DNA from: Streptococcaceae bacterium
GTDB lineage: Bacteria > Bacillota > Bacilli > Lactobacillales > Streptococcaceae
Reading direction: 5' to 3'
NCBI GenBank assembly: GCA_031254295.1
Contig: JAIRUS010000046.1
Coordinates: 2,973 to 66,972 of the forward strand
Length of the DNA stretch: 64,000 nt
How positions within the stretch are numbered: position 1 is the first letter of the stretch; every line of letters starts with the position of its first letter. Under the pieces are notes generated by a model that was given only the letters and a program-made list of their open reading frames with translations, made no database searches and had not been told where the DNA came from. The position numbers and the translations under genes were made by a program. This document shows, in pieces, positions 723-8,502 of this stretch.

Positions 723-2828
723 ATGATGCGGTTAAAAAAGGAGCAAGCTGAGGCGAAACTTTACGCACCTGTTTCAGGTGAGATGGTTCCCTTAGATAAG
801 GTTTCAGATCAAACATTTGCATCTAAAATGCTGGGAGACGGATTTGCGATTGAACCTTCGGATAGAAAAATTGTGAGTCCCGTATCTGGAACAATCAGTG
901 TGCAACAGGGACATGCGATTGGGATTCAAAGTGAGGAAGGACTTGAAATTCTGATTCACTTGGGAATTGATACAGTAGCTTTAAAAGGGACTCCATTCAA
1001 TATCAAAGCTCGGGTTGGAGATAAAGTTCAGGTGGGGGCACTTCTTGGAGAAGTGGACTGGGAGCAAGTAGACGCAGCATCTATCCCTAAAACTACACTT
1101 GTAATCATTACTAACACGGCAGATAAACTTGAGAAAATTTCAGCTGCTACAGGAAAAGTTATCGCTGGAAAAGAAGCAGCCAGATGTGAATTGAAACAGT
1201 CAAAATCAGAAGTTAAAAAGGCTGGAAAGGCAACGGGTTACCTTCAAAAATTAGGTAAGTCTCTCATGATGCCGATTCCGATCATTGCGGCAGCAGGAAT
1301 TTTCTTGGGGCTTGCGAGTGTTCTGCAAAATCCCAATATTGTAGGCCCAGCTTTTGTGGCCAATCTTGATGCGCAAAATGTCATTGGATTTATCAAAACG
1401 ATTATCGCAGCCTTATTTGCGAATTTGCCGATTTTGTTTGCAGTTTCAGTGACTATCGGTTTGGCCAAAGCTGAAAAAGCCAATGCAGCCTTTTCATCCG
1501 TCGTTGCCTTCTTGTTGATGCATGTCACGATTAGTTACATGCTGAGCCTTAAGGGAATCACAGCAGCAACTTATTCGGTTGATTTGTTAGTGAAGAGTGG
1601 GCAGTCAGTTTTAGAGGCAACAAAGGCTGTTTCCATGTATACGAGTGTCCTCGGTGTCTTTTCTTTCAATATGAATGTCTTTGGCGGCGTACTCGCTGGT
1701 GTGCTTGCGGCGGCTATTCATAACCGCTTCTATAAGACAGAGCTTCCAATGGCTATTTCTTATTTTGGCGGCAAACGGCTTGTGCCAATTATGACCACAC
1801 TTTTTGCACCAGTCCTTGGTGTGATTCTTTACTTTGTCTGGCCCTTCATTGGGACAGGCATTCAGAGTCTCGGAGAAATTATTGCCTCAGCTGGGCTGTT
1901 TGGAACCTTTATCTTTGGAATGCTGGAGCGTTTGCTCATCCCTACAGGCCTGCACAATATCCTCAATCAAATGGTTCGTTTCACACCAATTGGGGGTTCA
2001 GCGACCATTGACGGCAAACAATTTGTTGGCGCTTTGAATATTTTCAACGCTTTACTTGCTCAGGGGCATCCTAATATGGAAATCATGCGTTCGGCAACGC
2101 GCTTCCTTGCTCAAGGTAAGATTCCTTACATGATGTTTGGACTTCCAGCGGCTGCGTTAGCAATGTACCGCACGGCTTTACCAGAAAATAAGAAAAAAGT
2201 GGGCGCTCTGCTCTTTGCAGCAGCCTTGACGTCATTTACTACAGGGATTACAGAGCCCATTGAATTTCTGTTTATCTTCATCTCTCCAATTCTGTTTATA
2301 TTCCATGCAATCATGGGGGGCTTGGCCTTCATGCTCACAAACTTATTGGGAGTCGCGATTGGAAATGTTCAAGGGGGAGCCATTGATTTGGGAGTGTTCG
2401 GAGTGCTTCGTGGACTTGATACGCGCTGGTACTTTGAGCTTCTTCTAGGAGCCATTTATGCGCCAGTTTATTATTTCACATTCAAAAAAGTGATTATGTG
2501 GAAAAATCTGAAAACGCCAGGTCGTGAAGTAGAAGAAGATTTGGGAAGTTCCGCCGTCATGGACAACGCTCCAAAATTAACAGGAGACCTAGGACATAAA
2601 ATAATTGCCGCTCTGGGTGGTTTAGGAAATGTTGAATCCATTGACAATTGTTTCACGCGTCTTCGTCTAGTTTTGAATGATGCAAGCAAAATTGACGAAG
2701 AAACTCTGAAATCAACGGGAGCAGTCGGAATCGTCAAGTTGGATTCTAAAAATATTCAAGTTGTTTACGGACCACAAGTTGAATCTATCGCCTTGAAAGT
2801 AAAAGAGGCGGCAGGTCTGTCAGAATAA
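723..2828 (+). CDS. Glucose-family PTS enzyme II, domain order IIA-IIC-IIB
   Basis: IIA motif LIHLGIDTVAL at the N-terminus, IIC (LQKLGKSLMMP...GITEPIEF), C-terminal IIB (IDNCFTRLRL). ATG 723/726 follows an AGGAGAAGGAG RBS; the track start at 681 is too early. Confidence 0.92.
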   Translation: MMRLKKEQAEAKLYAPVSGEMVPLDKVSDQTFASKMLGDGFAIEPSDRKIVSPVSGTISVQQGHAIGIQSEEGLEILIHLGIDTVALKGTPFNIKARVGDKVQVGALLGEVDWEQVDAASIPKTTLVIITNTADKLEKISAATGKVIAGKEAARCELKQSKSEVKKAGKATGYLQKLGKSLMMPIPIIAAAGIFLGLASVLQNPNIVGPAFVANLDAQNVIGFIKTIIAALFANLPILFAVSVTIGLAKAEKANAAFSSVVAFLLMHVTISYMLSLKGITAATYSVDLLVKSGQSVLEATKAVSMYTSVLGVFSFNMNVFGGVLAGVLAAAIHNRFYKTELPMAISYFGGKRLVPIMTTLFAPVLGVILYFVWPFIGTGIQSLGEIIASAGLFGTFIFGMLERLLIPTGLHNILNQMVRFTPIGGSATIDGKQFVGALNIFNALLAQGHPNMEIMRSATRFLAQGKIPYMMFGLPAAALAMYRTALPENKKKVGALLFAAALTSFTTGITEPIEFLFIFISPILFIFHAIMGGLAFMLTNLLGVAIGNVQGGAIDLGVFGVLRGLDTRWYFELLLGAIYAPVYYFTFKKVIMWKNLKTPGREVEEDLGSSAVMDNAPKLTGDLGHKIIAALGGLGNVESIDNCFTRLRLVLNDASKIDEETLKSTGAVGIVKLDSKNIQVVYGPQVESIALKVKEAAGLSE

Positions 2829-7221: not shown

Positions 7222-7250
7222 TTGACCCTCCCCCAAAAAAGTGATAAACT
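7222..7250 (+). promoter_or_regulatory. Sigma-A promoter of the riboswitch-deaminase transcript
   Basis: TTGACC-17 bp-TAAACT with TG extension. Confidence 0.75.
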
Positions 7251-7257
7251 AAGTCAA

Positions 7258-7324
7258 CTTATTTATACCCAGAATATGGCTGGGCGTCTCTACCTCGCAA
7301 CCAATGGAAATGCGGGACAATAAG
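7258..7324 (+). ncRNA. Purine riboswitch aptamer, guanine-type discriminator
   Basis: P1 CTTATT/AATAAG; P2 CCCAG/CTGGG with loop AATATGG; J2/3 GTCTCTAC; P3 CTCGCA/TGCGGG; C at 7318. Confidence 0.85.
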
Positions 7325-7475
7325 GTTGTTTTTTAACAGCTTTTTTGATAATCCAGTTCGCCCAAGCAGAAAACTAGGAAAAAAGATGACTTGGAACCTG
7401 CGCTTTGCGCAGAACCACAAGCTCCCTATTTTTCTACGTTTTCTATCATGCTAGGGCTAACTTTTTATGTAAAGT

Positions 7476-7504
7476 CGCCCTATCTTTTTGGATAGGGCGT
7501 TTTT
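7476..7504 (+). terminator. Leader (attenuator) terminator just upstream of the deaminase start
   Basis: CGCCCTATC-TTTTTG-GATAGGGCG-TTTTT. Confidence 0.75.
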
Positions 7505-7515
7505 GGAAGGAAATT

Positions 7516-8502
7516 ATGGAAAACAAAAAGTCGAACGTTTTAACAGATCTTGCAGAGCTTCATATGCATATTTCGTCTTCGGTCACACCGGAGATTCTTT
7601 GGGATTTGGCACATGAGCAGGGGATGAAGTTGCCTGCGCGTGATTATTTCGAGTTTTCAAGGCTTGTCACAATTGATGGGCAGGTTGGCTATGAGGATTA
7701 CTTGAAGATGTATGATTTACTCGAAGAGATTCAGTCAACGCCTGAGTCGATGTTTCATTTGGCTGAGTCTGTACCGACACATCTCTATCAGCATGATAAT
7801 ATCGACCTAGTCGAGATTCGTATGAATCCGATGTTGCGTTCGCGTGGTGGGAAGATTGATCTTGACCATATCATCGTGTATACTTTGCAAGGCCTTGAAC
7901 GGGCAAGTTTGAAGTTCCCAAAGCTCCGCACAGGTTTGATTTTATCCATGGATCGACGCTTTAGTAAAGAAGTCAATACGATTATTGTAGATAAGGCCAT
8001 CAAATACAAGGATCGTGGCGTTGTCGGGATTGATTTGGCAGGCCCAATTGATCCGAAGTTCTCAATTGACGATATCGCAGGTCTGTCAAAACGTATCCAT
8101 GCTGAGGGGCTTGGTTTGACGATTCATACTGGAGAGGCAACTAAAGCGGATGAGATGTGGGAGGTTGTGCAAAAGCTTCGCCCAAATCGGATTGGGCATG
8201 GCGTGGCGGCTGTGCATGATGAAAATTTGATGAAGTTTTTGGTGGATCATAATATCATTCTGGAAACTTGTCCCTCTTCAAACTTGCAAACACTTGCAGT
8301 CAAGGATTTGGAAGAGATGAAATTCAACTATCGGACCTTGATTGACCACGGTGTGCCTTTTACTATCAATACTGATGGCCCGATTCTGCAAAATACGACT
8401 CTGCCTAAGGAATACCAGATGTTGCTGGATAATAACATCTTGACACTTGAAGAGGCAAAGGCTGCCAATGCGCGCTCTCATGTGGCAACTTTTATCAAAT
8501 GA
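7516..8502 (+). CDS. Adenosine/AMP-deaminase-family metallohydrolase
   Basis: ELHMH, TIHTGE, RIGHG, LETCPSSN, NTDGP. ATG 7516 after AAGGA; the track start lies inside the leader. Confidence 0.85.
   Translation: MENKKSNVLTDLAELHMHISSSVTPEILWDLAHEQGMKLPARDYFEFSRLVTIDGQVGYEDYLKMYDLLEEIQSTPESMFHLAESVPTHLYQHDNIDLVEIRMNPMLRSRGGKIDLDHIIVYTLQGLERASLKFPKLRTGLILSMDRRFSKEVNTIIVDKAIKYKDRGVVGIDLAGPIDPKFSIDDIAGLSKRIHAEGLGLTIHTGEATKADEMWEVVQKLRPNRIGHGVAAVHDENLMKFLVDHNIILETCPSSNLQTLAVKDLEEMKFNYRTLIDHGVPFTINTDGPILQNTTLPKEYQMLLDNNILTLEEAKAANARSHVATFIK

Follow-up and report, generated by a model that had tools for sequence, protein, structure and literature searches.

An xpt-type guanine riboswitch, probably duplicated with its expression platform, precedes an atypical ADA-family deaminase gene in Lactovum

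A 64,000-nucleotide stretch of Streptococcaceae DNA (the window) carries a purine riboswitch of the guanine class ahead of a gene for an ADA-family deaminase. The arrangement is probably best explained as a standard xpt-type guanine-I OFF riboswitch that was duplicated, together with its platform, ahead of a laterally acquired guaAB-add-type deaminase gene and places that gene under end-product control. The closest proteins to those of the source genome (G000, a draft assembly of 96% completeness) come from L. miscens and L. odontotermitis, which assigns it to the termite-gut Lactovum. RF00167 is the sole Rfam family that Infernal finds in the window, on the forward strand. The neighbours of the deaminase gene, a tyrosine recombinase gene and OsmC, lie on the opposite strand, and neither guaA nor guaB adjoins it within the window. 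G000 contains two purine riboswitches. The second (aptamer at L001 862-959, minus strand) stands upstream of a 199-aa gene that is presumably xpt and comes after a guaC-like gene. In locus L001, a GMP-reductase/IMPDH-family gene (1021-2010, minus strand; 329 aa, 170 bits to TIGR01302) directly adjoins the xpt riboswitch on its upstream side. The features of the window are collected in Table 1.

Table 1. Predicted elements of the riboswitch-deaminase unit, in window coordinates
Feature	Position	Strand	Basis
Promoter: TTGACC, 17-nt spacer, TG-extended TAAACT	7222-7250	+	Promoter scan, sigma-70-type
Purine aptamer, guanine class, P1-P2-P3 three-way junction	7255-7328	+	RF00167, 54.9 bits over 7239-7340; core as in the xpt aptamer of the same genome
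Antiterminator strand of the aptamer: P2 3' strand and J2/3, GGGCGUCUCU	7282-7291	+	Pairs with 7471-7481; truncated-transcript fold
Anti-P1 hairpin: C74 and P1 3' strand with AACAGCUUUUUUG (7335-7347)	7318-7347	+	MFE folds
Dispersed palindromic repeat copy, MITE/REP-like, about 110 nt (113 nt)	7354-7466	+	13 matches in the draft genome
Intrinsic terminator T2	7471-7504	+	Stem 7476-7499, 10 pairs, 6 of them G-C, -16.7 kcal/mol, then U5
Ribosome-binding site GGAAGGA and start ATG 7516	7505-7518	+	Sequence; N-terminus aligns with homologues
ADA-family deaminase, guaAB-add-type clade, 328 aa	7516-8502	+	PF00962, 192.7 bits

In cmscan the aptamer clears the RF00167 gathering score of 37 (window match E 1.2e-6), and the alignment shows P1, P2 and P3 formed. 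P1 pairs 7255-7263 with 7319-7328, and its top pair, U21 (7263) with A75 (7319), is U-A rather than A21-U75. J1/2 is UAU (7264-7266), J2/3 is the 8-nt GUCUCUAC (7286-7293), and J3/1 is the dinucleotide AC, formed by A73 (7317) and C74 (7318). The ligand-contacting positions read from the alignment are U22 (7264), U47 (7287), U51 (7291) and C74. Position 24 is a U, and the 25/45 pair is a non-Watson-Crick A.C. L2 spans 7273-7279, while L3 (7300-7310, A-CCAAUGGAAA) has 11 nt where 7 are usual. The GG of L2 and the CC of L3 (G37 and G38 with C60 and C61) are present for the loop-loop contact, within an L3 that departs from the 7-nt form. In folds, CCAAUGG in L3 is a possible mini-stem competing with this contact, and the longer loop and its mini-stem may lower ligand affinity. 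The C at 7318, the U-A top pair and the enlarged L3 had all been picked out in the preliminary description, and alignment and sequence confirm them. The promoter predicts a transcript start just 5' of P1, and a like promoter layout precedes the aptamer in the two other deaminase-linked leaders, from L. miscens (L003) and a Lactovum MAG (L006).

These features acquire a different meaning when the aptamer is compared with its relatives. Thirty xpt-type aptamers from six genera were read in a sample of 81 Streptococcaceae genomes, and 29 of them combine U21-A75 with U24; the textbook A21-U75 and A24 occur in one, L087. The same swapped pair, U24 and non-Watson-Crick 25/45 pair are found in the xpt riboswitch of G000 itself, and the core of that aptamer (UUAUUUAUACCC ... 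GGGCGUUUCUAC ... GACAAUAAG) is identical to the deaminase-linked one, U48C being the only pocket-adjacent difference. By this comparison U21-A75 reads as a lineage-wide swap in Streptococcaceae guanine riboswitches and no mark of the deaminase-linked element. Mulhbacher and Lafontaine give position 24 as A or U; in their work with the ligand analogue 2-aminopurine, an xpt aptamer bearing U24, that of Streptococcus pyogenes, ranked with the tightest-binding RNAs (PMC2018637). The length of L3 differs among the three deaminase-linked copies (11 nt in the window, 9 in L003, 5 in L006), so its enlargement is not a conserved adaptation. The RNA had been introduced as a guanine-riboswitch variant; the supposed variant features are the norm of the family. 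It is most likely a standard guanine-I riboswitch of the Streptococcaceae xpt type, with guanine or hypoxanthine as its ligand.

The expression platform was read from folds of transcripts ending just before the 3' arm of the terminator. In these folds the terminator 5' arm pairs with the P2-3'/J2-3 segment of the aptamer (GGGCGU...) in the window, in L003 and in 7 of 7 xpt controls, and this pairing encloses both P3 and the anti-P1 hairpin. The xpt leader of L096 carries a compensatory change, aptamer GGGUGUUUCUA against arm UAGAAACACCC. The antiterminator duplex is predicted at -14.6 kcal/mol in the window, -16.7 in L003, -15.5 in the xpt leader of G000 and -7.7 in L006, and the terminator of L003 is weak (-3.8 kcal/mol). 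The anti-P1 hairpin and P1 are mutually exclusive in folds, and the hairpin (CAA.UAAG... with ...CUU.UUG) recurs in all seven xpt leaders folded. T2 itself lies directly 5' of the ribosome-binding site. A terminator 5' arm of GAAACGCCC-like sequence, complementary to aptamer P2-3'/J2-3, is seen across the Streptococcaceae xpt platforms examined (L001, L084, L088, L094, L096, L097 and L103). Two other couplings were rejected. The P1 3' strand does not serve as antiterminator in equilibrium post-aptamer folds, where it is uncoupled from the terminator in the window and in the xpt controls; nor do P1 and the U6 that follows it make an integrated terminator, since the distance separating P1 from the U-run is anything between 0 and 15 nt in the xpt leaders.

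These pairings suggest a model of control. With ligand bound, P1, P2 and J2/3 would be locked, the terminator stem would form and transcription would end before the gene. With ligand absent, the P1 3' strand would be drawn into the anti-P1 hairpin, freeing the P2-3'/J2-3 strand, which would then pair with the terminator 5' arm to form the antiterminator and let polymerase read through. The terminator is favoured at equilibrium whether or not P1 is formed, in the window and in the xpt controls, and control must therefore be kinetic, as it must for those controls. The element is most likely an OFF switch of the same design as the xpt leaders. Because the deaminase leader repeats this design element by element, it can be read as a duplicate of the xpt riboswitch and its platform.

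The leader of the window is long because a repeat of about 113 nt has inserted between the aptamer and the terminator. The best other copy in the draft genome is 80% identical over 113 nt, and the aligned copies have long arms in inverted orientation, their central hairpin (GAACCUGCGC...GCGCAGAACC) showing covariation. Other copies lie, for example, in L113 (1501-1615), L114, L115, L116, L117, L118 and L120; several have at their borders CTTTTTGnTA(T)AAT-like direct repeats resembling extended -10 boxes. The repeat has no Rfam match and is absent from the deaminase-linked leaders of L003 and L006. It folds on itself and sits in the loop closed by the antiterminator, which is predicted all the same, and would be a passenger element that adds length to the leader. 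A 21-codon open reading frame with an AGGA box (7386-7451) lies inside the repeat and was taken as fortuitous.

The pairing of riboswitch and gene is narrowly distributed. Among 121 Streptococcaceae genomes, counting genes at 76% identity or more, the NTDGP-type deaminase gene (named for the motif described below) occurs in 5 of 6 Lactovum genomes and in 6 of 20 genomes of genus g9, taken to be Lactococcus, while a riboswitch precedes it in three genomes only, all Lactovum. All six Lactococcus homologues from the family search lack a riboswitch ahead of the gene, and the Lactococcus copies with leaders L004 and L005 have plain promoters. The Lactovum genome G020 (L125 2600-2700, minus strand) still has the promoter and the beginning of P1, the aptamer being deleted, in what looks like a recent loss. 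Together with the weak terminator of L003 and the weak duplex of L006, this loss allows that selection on the deaminase-linked element, with its non-uniform leaders, may be relaxed. The protein shares 44-56% identity with Patescibacteria and Chlamydiales members against 24-33% with the canonical add of Streptococcaceae; being closer to the former than to the add of its own family, the gene appears to have been acquired laterally. In an ancestor of some Lactovum species, an xpt-type riboswitch and platform would then have been duplicated ahead of it. In the Lactovum MAG G012, a sub-threshold T-box leader (L131 3435-3608; 72.5 bits against a gathering score of 93) is placed some 1.2 kb 5' of the deaminase-linked riboswitch.

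Three other explanations need to be weighed. The preliminary description had suggested that the specificity of the aptamer may have shifted; a new ligand could be, for instance, a nucleoside or modified purine matching an unusual substrate of the enzyme. Natural guanine-riboswitch variants with new ligands do exist (PMC9295807, PMC10556655), and the enlarged L3, along with the C48 or U48 and divergent L3 of the deaminase-linked copies, could be taken in the same sense. Yet xanthine-II and guanine-II riboswitches have a changed U51 (U51G) or nucleotides inserted in J2/3 and J3/1 (PMC9295807), and none of these hallmarks was found in the window aptamer, whose pocket nucleotides and junction lengths are those of the xpt aptamer of its own genome. 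Position 48 is solvent-exposed and variable (PMC2018637), and L3, as noted, is not conserved in the three copies. The suggestion of a new ligand is thus left unsupported and very improbable.

An ON switch would arise if the hairpin made by the P1 3' strand were itself a terminator that ligand disrupts, as in the pbuE adenine riboswitch. The 5' arm of this hairpin also belongs to P1, U-runs surround it, and activation by a substrate-like purine would suit a catabolic deaminase. When fully paired, however, it uses up the U-run and is followed by AUAAUCC, and it has few G-C pairs; the same hairpin stands in all xpt leaders alongside a separate strong terminator complementary to the aptamer core, and in the window that strong terminator would still stop expression. 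The chance of an ON switch is accordingly slim. Somewhat less remote, though still unlikely, is a decaying relic, in which the repeat insertion and the changes in L3 have uncoupled the riboswitch and left the gene constitutively expressed or silenced. The 113-nt insert, the deleted aptamer of G020, the weak terminator of L003 and the riboswitch-free Lactococcus homologues and leaders would all fit such decay. Against it, the aptamer scores well above threshold with its core intact, promoter, terminator and ribosome-binding site are likewise intact, and, since the insert forms a structure of its own, the antiterminator is predicted even in its presence. A working OFF switch of the xpt type remains the preferred reading.

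The enzyme is unusual in its own right. Its reading frame starts at the ATG rather than at the upstream TTG of the mechanical open reading frame, and it scores 200.5 bits against TIGR01430, the adenosine deaminase equivalog, below the cut-off of 216.55. The preliminary description had noted NTDGP where adenosine deaminases have (S/T)DDP, and alignments agree: N285-T-D-G-P289 (8368-8382) replaces the TDDP or SDDP of the Vibrio, Pseudomonas and mammalian enzymes. They add a second replacement, since the first metal motif reads H16-M-H18-I-S-S against the HxHLDG of adenosine deaminases. In mouse ADA, Asp19 contacts the ribose 5'-OH and Asp296 contacts purine N7; the window enzyme has its own S20 in place of Asp19 and its own G288 in place of Asp296. 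The metal and catalytic residues (H16/H18, H204-T-G-E207, H228 and D287) are intact in the alignment, and the enzyme is to all appearances catalytically intact. A Protein Atlas look-up returned 'adenosine deaminase' clusters only. Aminofutalosine deaminases are recognized by an Arg after the first strand, and this identity was rejected on the lack of such an Arg, the gua context and the presence of the enzyme in Patescibacteria and Lactovum.

The same replacements run through a large clade. Its members are defined by FTINTDGP, by HxH-[LIV]-[GS] and by at least 44% identity to other members, all of which the window protein shows. FTINTDGP is invariant in 20 diverse homologues, and NTDGP is present in 79 of 80 GTDB loci, with HxH-[LIV]-[G/S] and the ribose-contacting Asp lost. 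A pattern scan returned at least 600 stretches, 579 of them confirmed; among the matches listed are Patescibacteria, Chlamydiales, Ktedonobacterales, Nitrososphaerota, Micrarchaeota and a Rickettsiales endosymbiont. Judged by these alignments, the atypical motif is a trait of the clade and no local oddity. Genes for GMP synthase (guaA) and/or a CBS-less IMP dehydrogenase (guaB) adjoin the deaminase gene on the same strand in 42 of the 80 loci, and both do so in 33. In the Ktedonobacterales (Chloroflexota) loci L037-L055 the gene stands apart from gua genes, often near an APH-family phosphotransferase gene (19 loci), an M24 peptidase gene or a MOSC-domain gene. The clade is large, already annotated and apparently unassayed; the add product of the chlamydial plasticity zone, for example, has been named, without assays, both adenosine/AMP deaminase (PMC7694038) and adenine deaminase (PMC3622922).

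The rest of the genome bears on what the enzyme may do. G000 has a single PF00962 gene, and searches of this 96%-complete draft found no COG1001 adenine deaminase, purF or purM; hpt, deoD, guaB-like and guaC-like genes are present. The organism is probably a purine auxotroph, and the deaminase is apparently the one enzyme recognisable in it that could turn adenine-ring compounds into hypoxanthine, inosine or IMP and thereby supply GMP. Given that it is the sole visible step of this kind in an auxotroph, repression by guanine or hypoxanthine makes physiological sense, and would amount to end-product control. The genomic context favours adenine-ring compounds that feed IMP and GMP synthesis over an unusual purine detected by an RNA of altered specificity. 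PNP-family genes occur in 4 of 5 clade genomes checked, and a check of the five for HGPRT gave sub-threshold phosphoribosyltransferase matches only, one of them beside guaA (L009); with both kinds of gene in view, adenosine, adenine and AMP are all possible substrates. A nucleotide substrate would fit well with the loss of the acidic side chain at the 5' position. It may be, though we hold this tentatively and at somewhat less than an even chance, that the NTDGP clade is not made up of adenosine deaminases and represents a distinct enzyme, the most attractive candidates being a prokaryotic AMP/dAMP deaminase and an adenine deaminase. If so, the clade would close the AMP to IMP to GMP interconversion in Patescibacteria, DPANN archaea, Chlamydiae and some Streptococcaceae, and the guanine-OFF riboswitch of Lactovum would be independent regulatory evidence that the product feeds GMP synthesis.

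The locus matters for both of its parts. It would be a clear example of a riboswitch, aptamer and platform together, duplicated onto a newly acquired gene, where it has tolerated the insertion of a repeat or, in a sister species, has been lost again. For riboswitch biology it is mainly a caution: in Streptococcaceae guanine riboswitches, U24 and an exchanged top P1 pair come with the lineage and do not signal a new ligand. For the enzyme, it opens a way, through regulation and genomics, into a widespread ADA-family clade that lacks both classical substrate-contacting aspartates, that provides the sole visible adenine-to-guanine route of many symbionts with reduced genomes as well as of the apparent auxotroph G000, and that the literature annotates variously as adenosine, adenine or AMP deaminase.

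The unit can be compared with several known systems. The xpt-pbuX guanine-I riboswitches (Bacillus subtilis xpt and the Streptococcus and Lactococcus xpt leaders) share its three-way junction, U22, U47, U51 and C74, the 8-nt J2/3 and 2-nt J3/1, the L2 GG and L3 CC, and the terminator/antiterminator OFF design; the window element differs in controlling an ADA-family deaminase, in its 11-nt L3 and in the dispersed repeat within its expression platform. The add adenine riboswitches of Vibrio vulnificus and Clostridium perfringens likewise stand ahead of ADA-family genes. Mandal and Breaker are said to have found in 2004 that these RNAs have U74, sense adenine and switch ON, whereas the window RNA has C74, is predicted to switch OFF and precedes an enzyme from another ADA clade. 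The guanine-II, xanthine-II, 2'-dG-I/II/III and 8-oxoguanine variants are built on the same scaffold, the window element being set apart from xanthine-II and guanine-II by the absence of their hallmarks, and the variant classes described in PMC9295807 have a Paenibacillus, Propionispira and Clostridium distribution that differs from its own.

The deaminase stands in a similar relation to its relatives. Canonical adenosine deaminases (E. coli Add, mouse ADA) share with it the PF00962 fold and the HxH, HxGE, GHG and TD motifs, while the window enzyme has Ser/Gly for Asp19 and Gly for Asp296 and falls below the equivalog cut-off. The gua-flanked loci of the clade resemble the guaAB-add cluster of the chlamydial plasticity zone, compared here through Chlamydiales MAGs; loci L013 and L017 of these MAGs read add-guaB-guaA with NTDGP. 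The chlamydial genes form an operon, whereas the Lactovum gene is predicted to be monocistronic and controlled by its riboswitch.
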